A DNA stretch of 62,183 nt from Ktedonobacterales bacterium (lineage in GTDB: Bacteria > Chloroflexota > Ktedonobacteria > Ktedonobacterales > JADMIN01). The notes beneath the pieces are model-generated. The model ran no database searches, was not told the origin of the DNA, and saw nothing but the letters and a program-made list of their open reading frames with translations. A program made the translations under genes and the position numbers. Location of the stretch: NCBI GenBank assembly GCA_036559055.1, contig DATBTW010000256.1, forward strand, positions 1 through 62,183, read 5' to 3'. Below, piece after piece: positions 1,258-60,267 of this stretch (within the stretch, counting starts at the first letter, position 1; the number at the start of each line of letters is the position of its first letter).

Positions 1258-1968
1258 CTAGAGTGTGGATGACGTCGCGACGGTGGTGTCGCTCCGGATG
1301 GGCGCAATCTCCGGAGCCCTGGCGCTGCGCTGATGGGTGGCGTGCGGCTTGAACGGGCTGCGCAGCAGCGAGCGGGTCCAACTCGTCAGCTTGACGAGCG
1401 CCTCATCGTGAAAGACCGAGAAGTCATGCCGCTCACCGGGATAGATGACCAACTCCTTCGGCTCGCCCGCACGCACGAAGAGCATGCGCGATGTGGCGGC
1501 GGGCGCCACGCTATCCGCTGTGCCGTGCATCAGCAGCAGGCGGCGGGGCGCGATCTCCGTGACCAACTCCACAACCGTGTCATTGGGAGCCAGCGCGGCG
1601 ACGCCGGTGACGGCCTCGCTGGCTCCGCCAGCGGCGAGGGCGAGTGCCGCCCCCGAATGCCAGCCAATCAACGCCATGCGCTCTACACCCTGTCGGCGCA
1701 GCGCCGTCAGCGCCGAAAGCAGACACATCAACCGCTCATCGAACATCTCTGAGCATTGCTCAAGCTGCAACACGCTCACCCCCGCTCGCTGGATGCGCGC
1801 CGCCAGCTCATCGAAGAGATGGAATGAGCCTTCCGTAGCGCACGGCGCGTCAGGAATCAGGATGGCGGCGGCGCGTGTCACGCTGGATGGTCGCCACTTG
1901 CCACAGACCGACCCGCGAGGTGTCGAGATCGTGATAGCAATCGAGGAGGTTGAGCCAGTTCCCGGCAC
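1258..1968 (-). CDS. Alpha/beta hydrolase (dienelactone hydrolase-like)
   Basis: 236-aa ORF with a GTG start preceded by AAGGA. It has a nucleophile-elbow-like GWHSG and a C-terminal LLMHGTADSVAP...ERHDF pattern typical of DLH/peptidase S9-like hydrolases. Confidence 0.65.
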   Translation of the reverse strand: MPGTGSTSSIAITISTPRGSVCGKWRPSSVTRAAAILIPDAPCATEGSFHLFDELAARIQRAGVSVLQLEQCSEMFDERLMCLLSALTALRRQGVERMALIGWHSGAALALAAGGASEAVTGVAALAPNDTVVELVTEIAPRRLLLMHGTADSVAPAATSRMLFVRAGEPKELVIYPGERHDFSVFHDEALVKLTSWTRSLLRSPFKPHATHQRSARAPEIAPIRSDTTVATSSTL

Positions 1969-2501
1969 AGATTGTTCCTTTCTGGCGCATGGCCGCGCGA
2001 CCAGCCGCAGGGTGGCGGGCTGGCCTCAACAGATGATGCGCTTCACCGCACCCTTGCTATTGCGCTCCATGCTCTGAGCGCGCGAGACAGCGGGTCGCGC
2101 CATGCCGCATCGCATAGTGGTGGTGTCTCAGCCCTGGCCCGCACACAGTTACCCGAGTGCCAGCCGTCGCAACTGGACGGCCAATATGCGGGCGTCAGGG
2201 AGGGGATTCTTGAACAATTTGGACGCTACTCGCCGCCGCTCACACAACCTTGTGTCGCGCGCAGCCCCGCTCGCACTCACCAGCCAAAGCGAGCGGCCTG
2301 GGGTGGGCGCATCGTGCGGAGACAGAAGCATCGATCATCCGCGTCATTGTATCTGGTACGGTCGCATGTTAGCCAGGGACATCCTGGCGAGTGGGACTAT
2401 TGTGCAGAGGTCGTCCGTTAAAGACTTTACATAACATTAAACAGCCGCCACGCTTACACTATGCGCCGCCCTGGTTCACCACCACCTCATAGGCGCCATC
2501 A

Positions 2502-3287
2502 TGTGGATAACTCGCGAACGGGTGGACGACGACCTGCGAGCCGGAGCGGCGAGCGTGTCGTTAGCGCCCACTCGCTCTGGAGCGACTGAGCGGCGCACGC
2601 TGTGCGCGAACACCGCGATTTCGTGGATAAATAGCCTATTCGTGTGGAAAAGTGGCCGCCAGTGTAGATAACTTGGCGCGATTGCATGGCCCTCGCGTCC
2701 CCCTGACAATCCGCCGAGAGTCGCCTGTGAAGCCATCAGGGCGGTGGATAACCGTGTGGATAACTCTATAGGACTGTGGATAACCCGTGGGAACCTGGGG
2801 CGCCGCCTGTCGATGCATGTCGATGCGTGAGTCCGACGATCCGCGAGGGGGCAACGCCTGTGGAGGACCGTGTGGATGATAGTGTGGATGCGCTGGGGAT
2901 GACGGTGGAAAGTCGCTGGGCTATCCACCACCGCAGTGGATGGCGTTGGGGATGCGTTGTGGACGCTGTGGAAAGGCGCTGGAAGTTATCCGCAGCCATC
3001 CACAATTCACCTGCGGATATCCCGGCGTTGCGCAGCGTTTACCCACGTCAGCCGCCCTGGTGGACGGGCTGTCGATAACCCCACGCGCCCAGAAACAGTC
3101 AGCGCTGCGGCTTACCCGCCGAGGGCGCTCTGAACGGTTATCCCCACTATCCACCGGCCCTAATACTACGTACTACTATTTCTCTCTTCATTCATCTATA
3201 AGAGAAGAAAAGAAGAACGGGCACAGGCGGATTGCGTGTTATCCACAGCGACCCGCTTATCCCCAGGCGCATGTGGATTGTGGAGAA
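2502..3287. other. Candidate chromosomal replication origin (oriC): a DnaA-box cluster
   Basis: Perfect TGTGGATAA boxes lie at 2502-2510, 2755-2763 and 2775-2783, and a perfect TTATCCACA at 3239-3247. One-mismatch boxes lie at 2622-2630, 2643-2651, 2663-2671, 2743-2751, 2871-2879, 2986-2994, 3070-3078, 3138-3146, 3257-3265 and 3279-3287. The whole 1969-3300 interval has no convincing ORF. Confidence 0.7.
3161..3228. other. AT-rich putative DNA unwinding element inside the candidate origin
   Basis: taatactacgtactactatttctctcttcattcatctataagagaagaaaagaagaa is about 26% GC over 3161-3210, in a genome of roughly 65-70% GC. DnaA-box-like sites flank it on both sides. Confidence 0.55.
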
Positions 3288-3300
3288 CACCGCTGCAATG

Positions 3301-4254
3301 TCAGCTCCCGGCGTGGAGCGACGCTTCGAGCGCCTGGCGCATCACCGCCAGCGGGGCCTCGCGGCCCGTCCACAGGGTAAACGACTCGGCGCCCTGATAC
3401 AGCAGCATCGAGAGGCCGCCTGTGGCGCGCAACCCCGCCGCATGCGCCGCGCGCACCAGCGCCGTCTCCGGCGGATTGTAGACCAGATCGAGGATGAAGG
3501 CGTCGCGCGGCATACGTCGCAAGAGGTCGATGGGAATCGGCGATGCCTGGAGGTCGCGCGTGCCGACGGGTGTGGCATTGATCAGCAGGCGTGTCTCGGC
3601 GAGGGCGGCGGCGAGCGCGTCGCTGTCATCGAGGGCGAAGGCGAAGTCTTTGAGGTGATCGGGCGCGGCGAATGGCCCCGTGGGAAAGACGCCGCTCGTT
3701 CCGATGGCCTCCAGGCGGCCAGCCTCTTCGCGGCGGCTGTAGAGCGCTTCGAGCGCCTGGCGCGCGGCTGAGCGTTTGCGCGCCGCCACCCACGGCAGCC
3801 CGCCGCGCAGCAGAATGCTGCCCAGCGCCGCCTGCGCCGCGCCGCCTGCGCCCAGCACCAGCGCGCGTAGATCAGGCCGCCAGATGCGCTGCTCGTCGAG
3901 GATGCGTAGCAGCGCGGTGGAGTCGGTGTTATATCCCACCAGGCGCACGCCGTGCGGAGTCTCTTCGCGCACGATGGTGTTGACCGCGCCGGCGAGGTAG
4001 CGCGCGGTGGAGACGCGAACATCCAGCAGCGGCGCGACGGCCAGTTTGTGGGGAATGGTGACATTGGCGCCGAGCATGTCGGACTGGCGCAGCGCCTCGA
4101 TGCGTTTGCGCAGGTCGCTGTGGGGCGTCTCCCACAACTCATAGCGGATGTCGAGACGCAGCGCATCGAACGCCGCCTGCTGCATAGCGGGTGAGCGCGA
4201 GTAGTCGAGCGAGCGCCCGATGAGACCGACGCGACGCTGCGTGGCGCGTGCCAT
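3301..4254 (-). CDS. aroE: Shikimate dehydrogenase
   Basis: Motifs SRSP, NVTIPHK, GAVNT, GYNTD and the GAGGAA Rossmann loop. I chose the ATG at 4254 (MARATQRRVGLIG...) over the ORF-track start at 4311. Confidence 0.85.
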   Translation of the reverse strand: MARATQRRVGLIGRSLDYSRSPAMQQAAFDALRLDIRYELWETPHSDLRKRIEALRQSDMLGANVTIPHKLAVAPLLDVRVSTARYLAGAVNTIVREETPHGVRLVGYNTDSTALLRILDEQRIWRPDLRALVLGAGGAAQAALGSILLRGGLPWVAARKRSAARQALEALYSRREEAGRLEAIGTSGVFPTGPFAAPDHLKDFAFALDDSDALAAALAETRLLINATPVGTRDLQASPIPIDLLRRMPRDAFILDLVYNPPETALVRAAHAAGLRATGGLSMLLYQGAESFTLWTGREAPLAVMRQALEASLHAGS

Positions 4255-4500
4255 TGGCGATGGTCTCCGTTCTCCGTGATCTCTGGCGATCTGATGAACT
4301 TCGCCCTGCATGCAGTGTACTCAATTGAGCGGATTCTTCGCCAGCATGGCTCGTTGATGGCTCGTTGGCATGGCTTGCTGCCCATGGCTCGACGGTGGGT
4401 TCTCACGCCGAGCGATAAGGCGCTATACTGCGCTTACGGGTGTCGCATGGCTTTGCCAGTGCTGTTCGATGAAGATGGATGATATGAGGAGCGGTCGCAG

Positions 4501-21480: not shown

Positions 21481-21799
21481 CGTACGCCGTCGTGTACGAT
21501 GTCAGGACACACAAGAGCAGCCCGCGTCACCTCGTCGTCGGGTCGCTCTGGCTCCTTCACAACCTGACACACTGATGGTCATCCGTAGGTAGCTGAGGTA
21601 CGAGCGCCCAGAAGACGAGGGCGCCGCGCGTACCTCAGCGTTCTGTGGTTCATCCCGCGACCCACGCTGATTCTGTGGGCCTACCAGGAAGCCAGCCCAT
21701 GCTGGACATTGCTCCGGTTCGAGATAGCGCGTGGCAGTGGCGCCGCGCGCATATCGCCGCCCCAATTGTCGCCGTCGCGCGGCAGAAAGTGAGCCTGGT

Positions 21800-23848
21800 A
21801 TGAGAGTCTTCAATGCAGACAGCATCCGGAATGTCGCCGTCATCGCACATGGCGGGTCCGGCAAAACCTCGCTCGTAGACGCGGCACTCTACGACGCAGG
21901 CGCCGTCACCCGCCAGGGCAGAGTAGACGATGGCTCATCGGTCTCCGACACGGACCCCGATGAGCAGAAGCGCCGCATGTCCATCAACCTCACCGTCCTG
22001 CCGCTGGAGTGGCGCGAGTCGAAGGTCACCTTCCTCGATACCCCTGGCACAGCGGACTTTGTAGGCGAGGTGATGGCGGGCCTGCGCGTCGCGGATGCGG
22101 CGCTGCTGGTGGTCTCCGCCGAGAAAGGCGTCGAGGTCGGCACGCAGCTGGCCTGGGATCACGCCGACGAGTACCAGCTTCCCCGGCTCATCTTCATCAA
22201 CAAGCTCGACCGCGAGAACACGAACTACGACCACGCGCTCGATTCCCTGCGCGAGCGCTTCGGCTCCAAGGTCGCCCCGCTGACCATCCCCATCGGCCAG
22301 GCAGGCGCGTTTACTGGCGTGGTAGACATCATCTCTGGCAAGGCCTACGGCTTCGACGCCGACAAGGTGGTCGAGCGCGAGATTCCCGGCGACGTGCGCG
22401 AGCAGATGACCCGCTATCGCGATGCGCTGGTTGAGGCGGCGTGCGAGGCCGACGACGACCTGATGACCAAGTATCTGGAAGGCGGCGAGATCAGCGAGGA
22501 TGAGCTGCGCCACGCCGTGCGCCTGGCGGTGGCTGGCGGCCTGCTGGCCCCCGCGCTGGCGGGCTGCGCCGCCAGGAACATCGGTGTGCAGAACCTGCTC
22601 GACGCCATCGTCGATTACCTGCCCTCGGCGGCTGAGCGCCCCGGCGTCTCGCCCGATGGCCAGCCCTGCGCCTTCGTCTTCAAGACGATGGTCGATCCGC
22701 AGAAGGGCACCTACAGCTTCCTGCGCGTCTACAGCGGCTCCCTCAAATCCGACGCGCACGCCTTCAATGTGGATACCGCGACCGATGAGCGCCTGGGCCA
22801 GCTCTTGCAGGTGCGCGGCAAGTCGCAGGAGCAGATTCTCGAAGCCCCCGCCGGAGACATCTGCGCGGTGGTGAAGCTGAGCAAGACCCACACCGGCAAC
22901 ACCCTCGGCGCGAAGGATTGCGAGAAGCGCGACGTCATCCACCTGCCAGAGCCGCTTTTTACAGCGGCGGTTCACCCCAAAACGCAGAGCGACCTCGACA
23001 AGATGAGCGTGGCCCTCACCCGCATGGTGGAGGAAGACCCCACCTTGCATGTCGCGCGCGACCCGGAGACGGCGGAGACGCTGGTATCGGGCATGGGTGA
23101 GTCGCATGTGGAGATTGCGCTGGAGCGCGTGCAGCGCCGCTTTGGTGTCGAGGTGACGCGCCGCGACCGCCATGTGCCATACCGCGAGACCATCAAGAAG
23201 AAGGCGCGCGCGGAGGGTCGCCACAAGAAGCAGACCGGCGGGCATGGGCAATTCGGCGATGTCTGGCTGGAGATCGAGCCGCTGACGGGCGACGAGCGCG
23301 ACTTCGTCTTCGAGAATCGCAGTGTCGGCGGCGTAGTACCGAGAGAATACGTGCCGGGTGTCGAGAAGGGCGTCAACGAGTCGCTGCGCGAGGGATTCCT
23401 GGCGGGCTACCCGATGACGCATGTGCGCGTCTGCCTGGTGGATGGCAAATACCACGATGTCGATTCATCGTCGCAGGCGTTCGAGATCGCGGCGCGGCTG
23501 GGCATGAAGGAGGCGGTGGCGCTGGCCGCCCCGACGCTGCTGGAGCCGATCATGCAGGTGACGATTCTCGCGCCCGATGAGCACATGGGCGACATCACCT
23601 CTGATCTGAACACCAAGCGGGCGCGCATCCTGGGCATGGAGCCGGGCGAGCATGGCATGCAGCGCATCATGGCGCATGTGCCGATGGCCGAGATGCTACA
23701 CTACGCCACCGATCTGCGCTCCATCACCCAGGGGCGTGGTTCCTTCACGATGGAGATCTCCAGCTACGAGGAGGTACCCACCAACGTGCAGCAGGGCATC
23801 ATCGACGCCCACAAGAAAGAGGTCGCTGAGAAGCAGGCGGCGCACTGA
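21800..23848 (+). CDS. Elongation factor G paralogue (EF-G2-like)
   Basis: ATG at 21800. It shows EF-G five-domain collinearity, with G1 AHGGSGKTS, G3 DTPGTADF and G4 NKLD. It is not in a str-operon context. Confidence 0.85.
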   Translation: MRVFNADSIRNVAVIAHGGSGKTSLVDAALYDAGAVTRQGRVDDGSSVSDTDPDEQKRRMSINLTVLPLEWRESKVTFLDTPGTADFVGEVMAGLRVADAALLVVSAEKGVEVGTQLAWDHADEYQLPRLIFINKLDRENTNYDHALDSLRERFGSKVAPLTIPIGQAGAFTGVVDIISGKAYGFDADKVVEREIPGDVREQMTRYRDALVEAACEADDDLMTKYLEGGEISEDELRHAVRLAVAGGLLAPALAGCAARNIGVQNLLDAIVDYLPSAAERPGVSPDGQPCAFVFKTMVDPQKGTYSFLRVYSGSLKSDAHAFNVDTATDERLGQLLQVRGKSQEQILEAPAGDICAVVKLSKTHTGNTLGAKDCEKRDVIHLPEPLFTAAVHPKTQSDLDKMSVALTRMVEEDPTLHVARDPETAETLVSGMGESHVEIALERVQRRFGVEVTRRDRHVPYRETIKKKARAEGRHKKQTGGHGQFGDVWLEIEPLTGDERDFVFENRSVGGVVPREYVPGVEKGVNESLREGFLAGYPMTHVRVCLVDGKYHDVDSSSQAFEIAARLGMKEAVALAAPTLLEPIMQVTILAPDEHMGDITSDLNTKRARILGMEPGEHGMQRIMAHVPMAEMLHYATDLRSITQGRGSFTMEISSYEEVPTNVQQGIIDAHKKEVAEKQAAH

Positions 23849-26871: not shown

Positions 26872-27028
26872 CACGCGCCTTCCTCGGCGTCGCGCTAGCG
26901 CTGACACGCATGGCCATTGCCGTTCCCTCGCGCATGCGCAGCCTTCTCGCTGGAAGGTACGTCGGCGGGCGGGGAATCATCACAGCAAGGTGGATGGGCT
27001 AGCAAGCATGGTCGTGCGGCGCGCAGCC

Positions 27029-27331
27029 TCACTGACCGAGTGCCTCATCCGTCGAATAGGCGCGCAGTGACATGAACCTTGCCAGCGCGGCGGCTTCCTG
27101 CGCCGTCAGCACGATGGTTTGCTCCAGGTCGTGTAGGAAGATACGGCTGGGATGGTTGCGACTGTGCTCCAGCCGCCAGATGTAGGTGCGATCACACCCG
27201 AGTCGCTCGGCGAGGCGTTCCTGTGAGAGTCCACGGCGCATGCGCAGGCGCTTGTGAAAGGGGCCGAAGTCGCTCCAGGAAATATCCAACTCCTGAGCTG
27301 CCGAGCGTGGATCATGCGCAGATGCGTCCAT
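27029..27331 (-). CDS. XRE-family helix-turn-helix transcriptional regulator
   Basis: ATG at 27331. LRMRRGLSQERLAERLGCDRTYIWRLEHSRNHPS is a canonical Cro/C1-type HTH. Confidence 0.85.
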   Translation of the reverse strand: MDASAHDPRSAAQELDISWSDFGPFHKRLRMRRGLSQERLAERLGCDRTYIWRLEHSRNHPSRIFLHDLEQTIVLTAQEAAALARFMSLRAYSTDEALGQ

Positions 27332-27400
27332 GGTGTCCGTTCCCTCCCATCTCCGCCCGCGTGTCGGGGGGAGGGGGCGAGCGGATGTGCTTCCTCGTAT

Positions 27401-27430
27401 GTTGCGCCACGCAACGTTGCGTGGCGCAAC
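27401..27430. promoter_or_regulatory. Perfect 30-bp palindrome (two tandem GTTGCG-N3-CGCAAC sites), a candidate operator
   Basis: GTTGCGCCACGCAACGTTGCGTGGCGCAAC lies in the divergent intergenic region between the XRE gene and the 27641 gene. A second inverted repeat, agcgtaca-N7-tgtacgct, lies at 27437-27459. Confidence 0.6.
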
Positions 27431-27640
27431 TTCACAAGCGTACATTCATAGTGTACGCTGGCTGTCAAGAAGGAGGAAGACACAAACCCATATGTGTGGG
27501 GACTATCCAGGCAGATTCTGAGTAGCCAGTAGGCGTAGTTTCTGTGAAATTAGATGTTCTGGATAGGAGGTGTACTGCAAACCAGTCATCAACGCTTCGT
27601 TGAACTGTCATCCCAACACAAGCGGGATCGCGTGGGAGTC

Positions 27641-28579
27641 ATGCATGGAGGTGGCACGACGATACCAAAGAAAAGGAGCCTCGTATCGTGGCATCGCGGC
27701 AGGGCGATACTTGGGATTCTGATAGCGGTCATGATACTCATCGCTGGCGGAATAACGTCGGGGACGGGGTTACTGGCGCGTGGTGGAACCAGTACGGCAG
27801 TGTTCGCGACGCCTACTCCAGCCAGTACGATCAAAAACACCGGCGCGCACTCAAAATCGTCTGGAAGATCACCCGGCAGCGGACCAGCGCTTTGGATGGT
27901 CATTCCATCGGCATTAGCAGGACATACCGTACACTGGACGCAAGTGAGTTACTCGTATAGGGCCACCAGTCCTGACCCGGCCAATGGTCAGCTTGTGACA
28001 GGATCAGTCTGGGAGCAAATTGGCGCCGATGGCATACCAACCGTGTTCTTCGCCAGCTACACGCTCAGCACGGGCGTACCCTTGCAAGAAATTCTGCAAA
28101 CCAGGAATGGTGTCATGCTCCTGCTGGGTTCGGCGTACGCTGGACAGGGGCCTTCTTGCACCCAGCAATCGCAGTCGGTCAGTGTCGCGCAGATGCGCGC
28201 TACGCTGCCACCGTTTGCGGACGAATCAAAACTTGCCAGCCAAGGGTTTAGCAAGACACTCTTGAAAGCCCCGGCCTATGGCGTTCCCACGTCGCGCGAT
28301 TCCATCATCGGAGTAACTCCAGTTCAGGTATATGGTAGCGTTGGTTCCGCGTATTCGTGGGTTGCGCGTACAAGTCTACAGGGAAACGCGACCGAGGTCA
28401 CAATCATCGACGCGGACGCCCAGGGGCGCGTCGAGACCCAGGACAGCCAGATCATAAGCGGCGCTGGCGCTATAACGAGTGAGACGCGCACAACATTCGG
28501 CGTGCTTCAGGTCTATGCCTCCTCGTCTGTGCCCGCCTCGGTCTTTCCAACGCAGATAGGAAGGGCATGCAATGGCTAA
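27641..28579 (+). CDS. Hypothetical membrane-anchored extracytoplasmic protein in a low-GC island
   Basis: ATG at 27641 preceded by GGGAG. There is a single N-terminal TM helix (AILGILIAVMILIAGGI). The remaining 260 aa or so are Ser/Thr/Gly/Gln-rich. Codon usage is atypical (ata, tta, aga, agg). I recognise no family. Confidence 0.55.
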   Translation: MHGGGTTIPKKRSLVSWHRGRAILGILIAVMILIAGGITSGTGLLARGGTSTAVFATPTPASTIKNTGAHSKSSGRSPGSGPALWMVIPSALAGHTVHWTQVSYSYRATSPDPANGQLVTGSVWEQIGADGIPTVFFASYTLSTGVPLQEILQTRNGVMLLLGSAYAGQGPSCTQQSQSVSVAQMRATLPPFADESKLASQGFSKTLLKAPAYGVPTSRDSIIGVTPVQVYGSVGSAYSWVARTSLQGNATEVTIIDADAQGRVETQDSQIISGAGAITSETRTTFGVLQVYASSSVPASVFPTQIGRACNG

Positions 28580-29054
28580 ACGCTTCGGGTTGCTCGCGCT
28601 ATTGGCCGCTTTCGTTCTGACGGTTGTTGCCACAAGTGCGCCTACCGCGTATGCCGAGCCCACTCGCGCAGAGGGCTGGACTGGCTGGGATTGCAAAGTG
28701 GATGTAGGCGTCCAGGTTCAGAATGGTTGGCTCAGTGGCCAGGGATGTATCAACTGGACTGACGACAGCAGCTTCGTGTGGGCGGTATGGGCCTCCACGT
28801 CAGCTCCGCAAAGCTATGCGATCTACACCGACACGTACGGATATGACCAGTGCGCCCCAAATCCGTACCAACTCGACATGAACACCGGCGCAACTGTCTA
28901 CAACACGAACTACGGTACCAGCAATGAAGCCGTAGGTTACTACCAGAATTGCGTCGTGGACATAACTACGAGGAGTTCAACGCCAACCTCAGCAAAGCTA
29001 CATCATCGTCTCAGTATGAAGGCGGCTCAGCCTGGTTCCTTCCCTGAGCGATGA
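28572..29054 (+). CDS. Small secreted four-cysteine protein of unknown function
   Basis: It has a signal peptide (MAKRFGLLALLAAFVLTVVATSAPTAYA/EP). The mature part of about 130 aa contains 4 Cys and many Trp/Tyr/Asn. Its start overlaps the upstream stop by 8 nt, which suggests translational coupling. Confidence 0.6.
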   Translation: MAKRFGLLALLAAFVLTVVATSAPTAYAEPTRAEGWTGWDCKVDVGVQVQNGWLSGQGCINWTDDSSFVWAVWASTSAPQSYAIYTDTYGYDQCAPNPYQLDMNTGATVYNTNYGTSNEAVGYYQNCVVDITTRSSTPTSAKLHHRLSMKAAQPGSFPER

Positions 29055-49478: not shown

Positions 49479-49669
49479 CGGTAGCGCGCCTACCCCGCTC
49501 CAGCCCATTCCCAGAGGGAGAGGGAGCCGGAGGCGCTGCGCCGCAGCGATTTCGATAGCCCTGCTCCTGCCGCAGCGGGGGAGGGGGGCGTCTCACCTCG
49601 TGATAGAATGCGCGTAGCGAGCGACCGCGAGCCGGGCAGGTCGGGCGAATGTGGAGGGAGGCGCGAGTC

Positions 49670-50743
49670 ATGGCGACGCTACAGGTATTCGTGAGCCACA
49701 CCAAAGACAATAGCGACTTCTGCCACACGGTGGTGGAGGGGCTGCGCGGGGCCGGGGCTAACGTCTGGTACGACGAACACAACATGGGGTCGGGGATGCT
49801 GCTCGACACCATCGAGCAGGAGATACGCAAGCGGCCCGTCTTCGTCGTGATCCTCTCACCCGCCGCGCTGCGCTCGCAATGGGTGCGCGACGAGTGCAAG
49901 GCGGCCTACCTGCGGCTCAAGCGCGACTCCACGCGCATCATCCAGCCCGTGCTGGCGGGCGCGCTGCCCGACGAAGACGAGATCCCGATGTACCTGCAAG
50001 ACTTCAAGCGCATCGAGGCGCCAGGCTTGCAGCCGTTCCCGGCCGCCGAGGCCACGCGCCGCCTGCTGCACACGCTGGCGCTGACCCCGGCGGGCCAGGC
50101 GCCCGCGCCCATCGCCCCGCAGCCCCGCGAGAGCGGCGACGATCTGCTGGAGCGCGGCAAAGCGCTGATCGCCCAGGATCGCTACGCCGACGCGCTGCCG
50201 CTGATCGAGCGCGCCACCCAGCTCCTCCCCGACTCCTCCTCCGCCTGGTTCAATCGCGGCTATCTGCTCAACGCGTTGAAGCGTTTTGCCGACGCGCTGC
50301 CCGCTCACGACCGCGCGCTGGCGCTCGACCCGGCCTACGCTGCCGCCTGGAACAACAAAGGGAACGCGCTCAATGATTTGGGACGGCGCGAGGAGGCGCT
50401 GGAGGCCTACGAGCGCGCGCTGGCGCTCGACCCGGCCTACGCCATCGCCTGGAACAACAAAGGGATCGCGCTCAATGGGCTGGGGCGCCATGCCGAAGCG
50501 CTGGTGGCGCTGGACAAAGCGCTGGCGCTCGATCCGAACGACGTCTTCGCCTGGCGAAATAAAGGGATTGCGCTCAACGAGCTGGGGCGCTATGCGGAGG
50601 CGCTCAGCGTCTACGAGCGCAGCCTGACGCTGGATGCGCAATCTCCGCGCGGGTGGAATGGCAAGGCGCGGGCGCTGCGTGGGCTGGGGCGCGTGGCCGA
50701 GGCCGAGGCGGCCGAGCGTCGCGCGAAGGAGCTGGGCGGCTGA
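49670..50743 (+). CDS. TIR domain - TPR repeat protein
   Basis: ATG at 49670 preceded by GGAGGGAGG. The N-terminal 130 aa or so (VFVSHTKDN...GANVWYDEHNMGSG....I.QEI.....FVVILSPAALRSQWVRDE) match the bacterial TIR_2 pattern, including the conserved Glu. The C-terminal half has 5-6 TPR units (AWxNKGxAL..LGR..EAL..Y.RALALDP). Confidence 0.75.
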   Translation: MATLQVFVSHTKDNSDFCHTVVEGLRGAGANVWYDEHNMGSGMLLDTIEQEIRKRPVFVVILSPAALRSQWVRDECKAAYLRLKRDSTRIIQPVLAGALPDEDEIPMYLQDFKRIEAPGLQPFPAAEATRRLLHTLALTPAGQAPAPIAPQPRESGDDLLERGKALIAQDRYADALPLIERATQLLPDSSSAWFNRGYLLNALKRFADALPAHDRALALDPAYAAAWNNKGNALNDLGRREEALEAYERALALDPAYAIAWNNKGIALNGLGRHAEALVALDKALALDPNDVFAWRNKGIALNELGRYAEALSVYERSLTLDAQSPRGWNGKARALRGLGRVAEAEAAERRAKELGG

Positions 50744-53888: not shown

Positions 53889-55142
53889 TCAGGCTGACTC
53901 GTTCTCCAGTTCGACATTGCGCGACTCAATGACGGCGCGCGTGACGATCTGGGCGGGTTGATGCGACGTAATGGTGTCGCCGTCAATCACGACCTTCTTC
54001 ACATCTGAACGTGACGGCGCATCGAACATCACATCGAGTAGGACATTCTCCACAATGGTACGCAGCCCACGCGCGCCCGTCTTCTGGGCCAGCGCGGCAT
54101 CGGCGGTAGCTTCGAGCGCCTCCGGCGTGAAGGTCAGCTCGATGCGATCCAGGTTCATCAGCTTCTGATATTGCTTGACGATCGCGTTCTTCGGCTCCGT
54201 CAGAATGCGGATGAGCGCCTCGCGGTCGAGATTGTCGAGCGAGCAGGCGACGGGCAGACGCCCGATGAACTCTGGGATCATGCCGAACTTCAACAGGTCA
54301 TCGGGGATCAACTGAGCCAGCGCAGTGTTGCTCAACTCAGGTGTCTCGTCCACCGCTTTGAAGCCCATCAGCTTGTGGCTGCCCAGGCGCTGCTCCACGA
54401 TCTTATCCAGCCCCTCGAAGGCGCCGCCGCAGATGAACAGGATATTCTGCGTGTTGATCTGGATGAAATCCTGGTGGGGATGCTTGCGCCCGCCCTGCGG
54501 CGGCACATTGGCGACCGTGCCTTCGATGATCTTCAGCAGCGCCTGCTGCACGCCCTCGCCAGAGACATCGCGCGTGATGGAGGGATTGTCGGCCTTGCGG
54601 GCGATCTTGTCGATCTCGTCGATGTAGACGATGCCGCGCTCGGCGCGCGCCACATCGAACTCGGCGATCTGGATCAGCCGCAGCAGGATGTTCTCGACAT
54701 CTTCGCCGACATAGCCGGCCTCGGTCAGCGCTGTGGCGTCGGCGATGCAGAAGGGCACATCGAGCACCTTGGCCAGCGTCTGCGCCAGCAGCGTCTTGCC
54801 GCTGCCAGTGGGGCCGATCAGCAGGATGTTGCTCTTGCCCAGCTCCACATCGTCGATCTGCATGCCAGAGTTGATGCGCTTGTAGTGGTTGTAGACGGCC
54901 ACGGCGAGGGTTTTCTTGGCGCGATCCTGGCCGATCACATATTGGTTGAGCTGGTCGTAGATCTTCTTGGGGGTTGGAACCTTCCCCGTCGCCACGCGCG
55001 GCTTGACGACAGCCTGTTCTTCTTCAATGATCTCGCGGCAGAGGTCAACGCACTCATCGCAGATGTAGACACCGCCTGGCCCGGCGATGAGCCGCTGCAC
55101 CAGATCCTGACTCTTGCCGCAGAAGGAGCATCGGTACGTCAT
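53889..55142 (-). CDS. clpX: ATP-dependent Clp protease ATP-binding subunit ClpX
   Basis: ATG at 55142. It has the zinc ribbon CSFCGK...CDEC, Walker A GPTGSGKT and Walker [10 protein letters not shown]. The upstream 142 codons of the ORF-track call are non-coding leader. Confidence 0.95.
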
Positions 55143-55679
55143 GCGCGTCCCCTTCGTATTCGCCACGTTGCTACCATCCCCTCGCTGTCGTCGGCCTCTC
55201 TCCGACGTCCGCTGACGACGTCCGCTGACGTTGATCGCCGTGTTTTGCCGTGGTAGGCTCCGATACAGCTCGTTGCCCCACGTTTGGCGCCGCAGTTGAC
55301 GGGATGGCCACGGTGGCCTGGATGTCACACTGACGACGATGATTGGGCGCGTCTTGGCGCGCGCGCTGATTCTGGCTGTTCTTGAATAGCCGCCACGCGA
55401 CAACCACTCTGCGAGCAGGGCGGATGCGCTGATGGCATAGTCATAGTATATACGTCGAATGCGCCGGGCAGGAACAAGATTGCTCCAAGTCCCGACGCTT
55501 TCGCACACTTTCGCACACAAGGCCGACGCGCCGCCAGCGCGCAAGCCGTTCAGATTGATCCGCCGCATGATGGGCGGGCGCCGTGATCACACGGGCGGAT
55601 AAATCCGCACCTACGTGGCCCTACGGCCACGAAGCCCGTCTGCGCGGGCTGCCGGACTCGCGCCCGTGTGTCTTGGACG

Positions 55680-59476: not shown

Positions 59477-60160
59477 TCACGCTTCTCTTGGCTGGCCATG
59501 CTTATCCAGCAAGGCGTGTATGAGTGAATCCGCCAACCACTGTTCGTACTGCTGAGGCACCCACCCACGGTCGATGACGAACATGCGGTACAGATCGTGC
59601 GAGCCCGATGCCCAGATGATATCCGCCGCCTGCTCGACGGTTACTTCGCTGGCAAGCGCACCCTGCTTCGCCACTGCTGCGGCAACCGTCTGCGCATCGC
59701 GGAACCGTCCCTCGGCGAGTTGACGGAGCATCGCGGCAATTTCTGGATCGGCGGTGGCCGCTCCCTGCATGATCTCCGCCACGTCCGCCGAGCGCTCATG
59801 AATCTGCCGACCGTTTGCGGCAAAGATTGCCAGCAGTCGTCGCGCATCAGGTTCGGCAAGCATCGCGTGCCACCATGGTCGCTCTACTAAGGGCATAGGC
59901 TCCTCATCACCACCCACGACGAGTCGCACCAACGCTGTAAGCAGAGCCACTTTCGTCCCGAATATGGCGGTGATGGTCGGAGCAGATACTCCTGCCTCAC
60001 GCGCGATCGCCGGCAATGTCGTGGCCACATAGCCGTTCACGGCAAACAGACGCCGCGCAGCGTCCAAGAGCTTGCGACGTGTGAGCTCCGCCTGCAGTTG
60101 GCGCTGTGGAGAGTGATAGCGGCGTTTTGCAGATGTCTCGTCCTTCACATTCACCACCAT
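59477..60160 (-). CDS. TetR/AcrR family transcriptional regulator
   Basis: ATG at 60160. LLDAARRLFAVNGYVATTLPAIAREAGVSAPTITAIFGTK is the TetR HTH. Confidence 0.85.
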   Translation of the reverse strand: MVVNVKDETSAKRRYHSPQRQLQAELTRRKLLDAARRLFAVNGYVATTLPAIAREAGVSAPTITAIFGTKVALLTALVRLVVGGDEEPMPLVERPWWHAMLAEPDARRLLAIFAANGRQIHERSADVAEIMQGAATADPEIAAMLRQLAEGRFRDAQTVAAAVAKQGALASEVTVEQAADIIWASGSHDLYRMFVIDRGWVPQQYEQWLADSLIHALLDKHGQPREA

Positions 60161-60188
60161 TGACACATATTCAATATGAGTGTATAGT
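60160..60188 (+). promoter_or_regulatory. Near-consensus sigma-70 promoter with an embedded palindrome, a candidate TetR operator
   Basis: TTGACA (60160-60165), a 17-nt spacer and TATAGT (60183-60188). The spacer contains the palindrome CATATT-C-AATATG (60166-60178). The promoter points toward the 60268 gene. Confidence 0.6.
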
Positions 60189-60267
60189 ATCATAAATCAG
60201 CCGTGTGTGCAAGAGCGTCTGTGCGGTTTCAGGCGTTCGCACGGTGAGTATGTACATCTAGTGAGGA

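Follow-up and report, generated by a model that had tools for sequence, protein, structure and literature searches.

The separation of a chromosomal replication origin from dnaA is already well known. In Escherichia coli, oriC lies between gidA and mioC, about 42 kb from dnaA, with its unwinding element at one end; it is 232 bp long as annotated and carries about 11 DnaA boxes, organized in two opposed arrays (DnaA subcomplexes), together with IHF and Fis sites and 11 GATC sites. In the MG1655 sequence, box R1 is directed toward the unwinding element, and the reverse strand reads TTATCCACA-13 nt-CTA ATA AGA, running into the 13-mers. The origins of Streptomyces and Mycobacterium have many boxes (about 19 in Streptomyces) spread over 0.6–1 kb of a GC-rich genome, between dnaA and dnaN, and the Bacillus subtilis origin is bipartite around dnaA. 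Dense groups of boxes also occur away from dnaA, as in datA of E. coli and the clusters of B. subtilis and Streptomyces, which titrate or inactivate DnaA. Titration clusters require boxes only, and we know of no trios, unwinding element or initiation at datA or at the B. subtilis and Streptomyces clusters.

An arrangement of DnaA boxes followed by DnaA-trios, the basal unwinding system (BUS), has been predicted in 85% of the origins that were surveyed (Richardson 2016/2019; Pelliciari 2021, PMC8287927). The published search rule calls for a box with up to 2 mismatches, an optional second box with up to 4, a spacer of no more than 16 bp and three or more trios whose central base is A; the spacers are GC-rich and about 4 bp long on average, the distance from the first box to the trio is most often 13 bp, 3'-GAT-5' is the preferred trio next to the box, and in most predicted BUS the upstream box matches the consensus better (PMC8287927). 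Box and trios are written on one strand, as 3'-AATAGGTGT ... GAT-5' (Table S2 of PMC8287927), and the proposal is that DnaA holds the trio strand in single-stranded form. The BUS of B. subtilis incC has tandem boxes, a 4-bp GC-rich spacer, the 13-bp distance, at least three trios and AT-rich DNA (PMC8287927).

In cultured Ktedonobacteria, dnaA and dnaN lie next to parA and parB on the chromosome, and the GC skew forms a V at the predicted ori (PMC13289182). That paper, from 2026, gives ori positions predicted by Ori-Finder for cultured strains, and a literature search returned no description of a Ktedonobacteria replication origin. The locus considered here belongs to an uncultured soil Ktedonobacterales bacterium of 65% GC and lies in a window (the whole stretch of DNA analysed) of 62,183 bp, in which the first-pass annotation had singled out positions 2502–3287 as a candidate oriC. 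Sequence-level tests based on the unwinding core, on footprinting and on the persistence of the element despite changes in its flanks favour an origin over a DnaA-titration cluster. The element is probably the DnaA-dependent oriC of the primary chromosome, with linkage to neither dnaA nor dnaN; we infer that DnaA binds and unwinds it, and that it is the sole origin of its replicon.

Clustering and orientation of DnaA boxes

The window contains four perfect DnaA boxes (TTATCCACA), at 2502 (-), 2755 (-), 2775 (-) and 3239 (+), all of them inside the cluster, as the first-pass annotation had noted. Dinucleotide-preserving shuffles gave a chance level of 0.07 perfect boxes, and four or more were reached in none of 100 shuffles. 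When one mismatch is tolerated, 18 boxes are found across the 62 kb, 14 of them inside the 786 bp of 2502–3287, where the shuffle rate predicts 0.037 (Poisson P ~1e-31); the ten additional boxes occupy exactly the positions previously listed for at least ten one-mismatch copies. With two mismatches tolerated, the cluster holds about 22–24 boxes. GATC sites number one in the element, against 4.6 expected.

The interval 1969–3300 had been described as having no convincing ORF, and this holds: mechanical ORFs are present, none of them gene-like by third-codon-position GC, a test that recovers the other genes of this 65% GC window. ORFs overlapping the boxes were ruled out as genes by the same measure and by indels in relatives that are not multiples of three. 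Box clustering far above chance in non-coding DNA, a hallmark of oriC, is thus found here.

The boxes of 2921–3155 are mostly directed toward the putative unwinding site, whereas the ten boxes of 2502–2891 all have the other orientation and form triplets spaced by 20–21 or 12 bp. The earlier description of two convergent, oriented arrays stands as a strong tendency but not as a strict rule, given the reversed boxes at 2967, 3070, 3272 and 3279, of which the first two (with two mismatches and one mismatch, respectively) share the orientation of the left array though they lie within the right-hand one. The outer end of the far array is the terminal perfect box TTATCCACA (2502–2510, - strand), which is perfect in the related loci L001–L003 and absent in L004. 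It is followed on the same strand by three boxes with one mismatch each, at 2622, 2643 and 2663 (2622–2671), spaced by 21 and 20 bp, or two helical turns. This triplet is nearly unchanged in L001–L003 and is also found in L004 and L097; a 30-nt window within it (2630–2659) is 97% invariant. A further triplet (2743–2783, - strand), made up of a one-mismatch box at 2743 and perfect boxes at 2755 and 2775 with spacings of 12 and 20 bp, is common to L001–L003, L091, L094 and L097, and two of its three boxes are retained in L004. Three weaker boxes at 2859, 2871 and 2883 (2859–2891, - strand), 12 bp apart, have the far-array orientation and are partially conserved in relatives.

The array facing the unwinding site begins with four + strand boxes between 2921 and 3047, at 2921 (CTATCCACC), 2986 (TTATCCGCA), 2996 (CCATCCACA) and 3039 (TTACCCACG), with the reversed box at 2967 among them. 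All four are retained at 1–3 mismatches in L001–L003 and have the orientation of the two core boxes described below. The reversed one-mismatch box TTATCGACA (3070–3078, - strand) is retained in L001 and L003 and lost in L002. Past the unwinding element, at 3239–3287, lie the perfect + strand box at 3239, a + strand box at 3257 and two - strand boxes at 3272 and 3279, partly conserved in L001–L003. L004 lacks all four and has a methyltransferase gene directly beside the unwinding element, so that they are probably accessory. Boxes are also present on that far side of the AT-rich stretch in L091 and L097, where no alignment equates them with those of 3239–3287.

The putative unwinding core

On the + strand, 3138–3217 reads TTATCCCCA / CTATCCACC / GGCC / CTA ATA CTA / CGTACTACTATT / TCTCTCTTCATTCATCTATAAGAGAAGAAAAGAAGAA, and the complement of its first part is 3'-AATAGGGGT GATAGGTGG CCGG GAT TAT GAT-5'. 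The tandem core boxes (3138–3155, + strand) have one mismatch (TTATCCCCA) and two mismatches (CTATCCACC), so that the better-matching box is upstream here as well. They are followed by the GC-rich 4-bp spacer GGCC (3156–3159; GCCC in some relatives) and by three in-phase DnaA-trios (3160–3168) that read CTA ATA CTA on the + strand and 3'-GAT TAT GAT-5' on the - strand. The distance from the first box to the trio is exactly 13 bp, and the trios lie on the same strand as 3'-AATAGGTGT-5', so that in sequence the core is a BUS under the published rule. That rule is permissive in its loose form, being satisfied by 16 of the 106 boxes with up to two mismatches in the window. A stricter filter (box with up to 2 mismatches, spacer of up to 16 bp, CTA as first trio and downstream GC of at most 40%) leaves 3138–3168 as the sole site in the window. 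It counts against the assignment that only three trios are in phase: after a 4-nt break comes CTA CTA TTT, a set offset by one base.

The AT-rich, CT/AG-rich DNA that adjoins these boxes (3161–3217; 28–32% GC) is the predicted DNA unwinding element, as expected next to the boxes of an oriC. Within it, 3161–3211 has the lowest duplex stability of any 50-bp stretch in the 62 kb, at -55.8 kcal/mol against a mean of -80.5 and a standard deviation of 5.0 (about 4.9 sd). An AT-rich stretch bracketed by boxes had been proposed at first sight, and 3172–3211 indeed has 28% GC with boxes on both sides. The low GC content is shared by relatives (25–37% in nine of ten Ktedonobacterales-type relatives, whose genomes have 61–66% GC), while the sequence itself drifts; in the short contig L089, whose lineage is unclear, the value here is 43%.

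Another AT-rich patch at 2394–2444, the third least stable in the window, was considered as a second unwinding element. It is an unlikely one: it lies 62 bp from the nearest box, has no trios and stays with the hydrolase gene in L004. Its TTATGTAAA motif remains beside the boxes in L097, which makes its linkage ambiguous. The second least stable 50-bp duplex (60148–60198; 30% GC) is in a stretch of 0.60 GC at 59–62 kb and has no DnaA boxes.

DnaA would be expected to fill about 22 boxes in two opposed arrays, the far one at 2502–2891 and the one facing the unwinding site at 2921–3155, which terminates in the tandem boxes TTATCCCCA/CTATCCACC. A DnaA-ATP oligomer could then extend from the tandem boxes across GGCC onto the - strand trios, 3'-GAT TAT GAT-5', and capture of this strand would open the adjacent AT-rich DNA at 3161–3217 for helicase loading.

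A scan of metagenome contigs with the 25-nt core returned six contigs, among them L087, in which an identical core (TTATCCCCACTATCCACCG.CCCT; 24 specified bases) is found at 392–416, about 330 nt upstream of dnaN (742–1866). L087 was considered as a Ktedonobacterales relative retaining an ancestral dnaN-linked arrangement, and this was rejected given that the homologues of its DnaN are from Actinomycetota. By its position relative to dnaN, L087 is the same core at a classically placed putative origin, and two phyla share this core at origin-type sites.

Comparison with described origins

Like E. coli oriC, the element is unlinked from dnaA, has two opposed box arrays and has its predicted unwinding element toward one end. 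Its core has the same geometry as the reverse strand of the MG1655 origin, and its core boxes have the orientation of box R1 toward the unwinding element. It is larger, at about 790 bp with about 22 boxes, and has extra boxes beyond the unwinding element. The resemblance to the BUS of B. subtilis incC extends to the tandem boxes, the 4-bp GC-rich spacer, the 13-bp distance, the trios and the AT-rich DNA. The B. subtilis origin as a whole differs in being split around dnaA, whereas the element is a single block with three in-phase trios only. A bipartite origin of the B. subtilis or Helicobacter pylori type was not found: the cluster is continuous, and there is no dnaA in the window or in the related loci. 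The many boxes in a GC-rich genome recall Streptomyces and Mycobacterium, in which oriC lies between dnaA and dnaN rather than between aroE and a hydrolase gene.

Conservation in rearranged relatives

The nearest genomes are metagenome-assembled genomes of uncultured Ktedonobacterales (Chloroflexota), and the element is present in about 15 contigs of related Ktedonobacterales. In L001–L003, the cluster lies between aroE (81–91% identical) and the same hydrolase gene. The metagenome contigs L084, L085, L086 and L088 carry the cluster too, as do the longer contigs L091 (DASVZR010000009, 150 kb) and L094–L096. In a four-way alignment, 77% of box columns are invariant, against 29% of non-box columns (Fisher P = 4e-31), and the segment 3156–3178 is 91% invariant. 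A core block of about 41 nt is almost unchanged, and the stretch from the trios to the tandem boxes differs by only 1–3 bases across the window, L001–L004, L084–L086, L088, L094 and L097. The tandem boxes themselves show no difference among ten Ktedonobacterales-type sequences and L097, and are slightly altered in L091. The minimal part common to all relatives is about 2622–3217.

Two relatives keep the element in other surroundings. In L004 (contig CAVPBB010000021, 350 kb), the methyltransferase gene that abuts the unwinding element is matched on the other side by an inositol-1-phosphate synthase gene just beyond the 2622-type triplet. In L097, where the hydrolase is 42% identical, an HtrA-like protease gene lies on the unwinding side and small genes on the other, and the layout is preserved nearly box for box, with recA, recR and ybaB 4.5–7.5 kb from the cluster. 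Genes have been exchanged on both sides of the element in these contigs (L004 11047–15139; L097 6855–9441), and the immediate flanks of the origin look prone to rearrangement. Among Ktedonobacterales and Chloroflexia genomes with aroE genes 49–71% identical, no cluster was found near aroE, which has other genes downstream. Since the neighbours have been exchanged and the more distant aroE genes have no cluster beside them, the element predates, as far as these comparisons reach, the junction that it now forms with aroE, and it behaves as a self-contained unit.

Genomic context

The flanking genes had been named as a hydrolase gene and aroE, and both identifications were confirmed. The former (1258–1968, - strand) encodes an alpha/beta hydrolase (a weak match) from a narrow family found mostly in Ktedonobacterales, and the latter (3301–4311, - strand) encodes shikimate dehydrogenase and abuts the origin with its 3' end. 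The remainder of the window consists of ordinary chromosomal DNA, with genes for RtcB, a 1507-aa glycosyltransferase, tRNA-Leu, SHMT, a DEAD-box helicase, EF-G, Suf proteins, phosphoglucomutase, PspA, ArgRS, Lon, ClpX and trigger factor. The window genes tig, clpX, argS and lon, and recA and recR in L097, pass the NCBIfam equivalog cut-offs and point to a primary chromosome as the likely replicon.

Some of the window genes have features of their own. The EF-G gene (21731–23848, + strand) scores 656.3 against the TIGR00484 equivalog cut-off of 659.4 and may encode an EF-G paralogue. The ClpX ORF (53889–55568, - strand) has about 143 residues before the zinc finger, as either an N-terminal extension or the result of a mechanically chosen upstream start. 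A 364-aa protein encoded at 49649–50743 (+ strand) carries a TIR domain at its N terminus and TPR repeats after it, a domain pair common in anti-phage or signalling proteins. At 27001–29000, GC dips to 0.58, against 0.65 for the window, and includes a 341-aa ORF (27554–28579) without a Pfam match; this may be acquired DNA.

In agreement with the initial reading, neither dnaA nor dnaN was found in the window by Pfam or tblastn. There is none within 59 kb on one side or, by synteny in relatives, within about 10 kb on the other. Searches by tblastn with B. subtilis DnaA (a query confirmed as DnaA by Pfam, 270 bits) and with the DnaN of L087 gave no hit in the window or in loci L001–L089, and Pfam annotation of L091–L097 revealed no dnaA and no dnaN. 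The usual origin neighbours rpmH, gidA, parAB, gyrB and recF are absent from the window, in which no parS-like site with up to three mismatches was detected either. The adjacency to indicator genes that is usual, but not obligatory, for an origin is thus lacking here; the authors of Ori-Finder state that it is not universal. A promoter and terminator scan gave nothing exceeding the shuffle expectation. Third-position GC skew was separated from coding-strand bias, and its replication-associated component was -0.005 over 3.3–62 kb (95% bootstrap interval -0.031 to +0.017), with only 2.5 kb available to the left of the element. The genes to the right are divided between the strands, 19 on + and 21 on -, over 59 kb. 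Neither gene orientation nor GC skew, whether overall or at third positions, thus gave a signal in favour of an origin here or against it.

The box-free leader of the hydrolase gene

The ORF-free DNA had been described as one region of 1.3 kb. About 0.8 kb of it is retained here as origin, and the remaining 0.5 kb or so is a conserved leader of the hydrolase gene. This part (1969–2460, - strand), upstream of the hydrolase gene and outside the origin, contains the promoter-like motif TTATGTAAAG ... TACAAT and, between it and the gene, about 450 nt of leader, with counterparts in L004 (15140–15680) and L091 (9470–10000). In L004, the leader stays with the hydrolase gene though another gene parts it from the boxes. 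Rfam gave no match to 1900–3350 at E <= 1. RNAalifold predicted 77 pairs, 11 of them with compensatory changes, and several hairpins keep their pairing although both partners have changed. The leader may be an undescribed cis-regulatory RNA; the hydrolase family that it precedes, with 53 homologues, is nearly confined to Ktedonobacterales.

Alternative explanations

The position of the cluster, far from dnaA and dnaN, is also that of datA and of the B. subtilis and Streptomyces clusters, and a secondary cluster of this kind, which titrates or inactivates DnaA while the true oriC lies beside dnaA, would agree with the lack of a GC-skew or strand-bias signal over 59 kb and with the single dnaA/dnaN/parAB locus of cultured Ktedonobacteria (PMC13289182). 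It is nevertheless improbable, because the element combines boxes with trios and an unwinding element, because its most conserved part is precisely the correctly spaced and oriented box-spacer-trio core with the least stable DNA, and because the same core is found at the dnaN-linked origin of L087. The absence of dnaA nearby would also be explained if the element were the origin of a large, chromid-like second replicon fired by chromosome-encoded DnaA: cultured Ktedonobacteria have second replicons of 1.5–3.5 Mb without a Rep-family initiator, yet with Ori-Finder origins (PMC13289182). Such an origin would account for the missing Rep-type initiator on the secondary replicons of Ktedonobacteria (PMC13289182) and would be a rare case of two DnaA-dependent replicons per cell. 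This is very unlikely, given that those second replicons carry only 0–7 of 120 marker genes (PMC13289182), whereas the window holds true tig, clpX and argS as well as lon, and in L097 recA and recR lie 4.5–7.2 kb from the cluster; the lineage of the window (65% GC) is, moreover, distant from the cultured strains (49–54% GC).

The remaining explanations keep the element on the chromosome and give it a different role. DnaA serves as a transcription factor in many bacteria, and the cluster is located upstream of the hydrolase gene, as would suit a DnaA-controlled promoter region for that gene or for the end of aroE. About 22 boxes and an unwinding core far exceed the needs of a promoter, however, and the cluster is still conserved in L004 and L097, where other genes part it from the hydrolase gene and its leader, so that this role is extremely improbable. 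A bacterial chromosome rarely has two active DnaA origins. Dual oriC have been predicted in some bacteria, such as in a preprint on Halomonadaceae, and the element could be one of two origins or a former origin that has been retained, but an unused origin would not hold its boxes and core so constrained across lineages of 42–91% protein identity; we consider either case highly unlikely.

Implications

As the probable oriC of the primary chromosome, the element leaves knowledge of how origins function unchanged. It provides a sharply delimited candidate with a minimal conserved core of about 2622–3217. Genomes of this soil lineage, both metagenome-assembled and closed, could be oriented and rotated by it, and shuttle vectors could be built with it. 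It would also permit testing whether the box-trio unwinding core is functional in Chloroflexota. The preservation of its structure amid gene exchange, together with a core identical to that of an actinobacterial dnaN-linked origin, fits an ancient, self-contained unwinding module.
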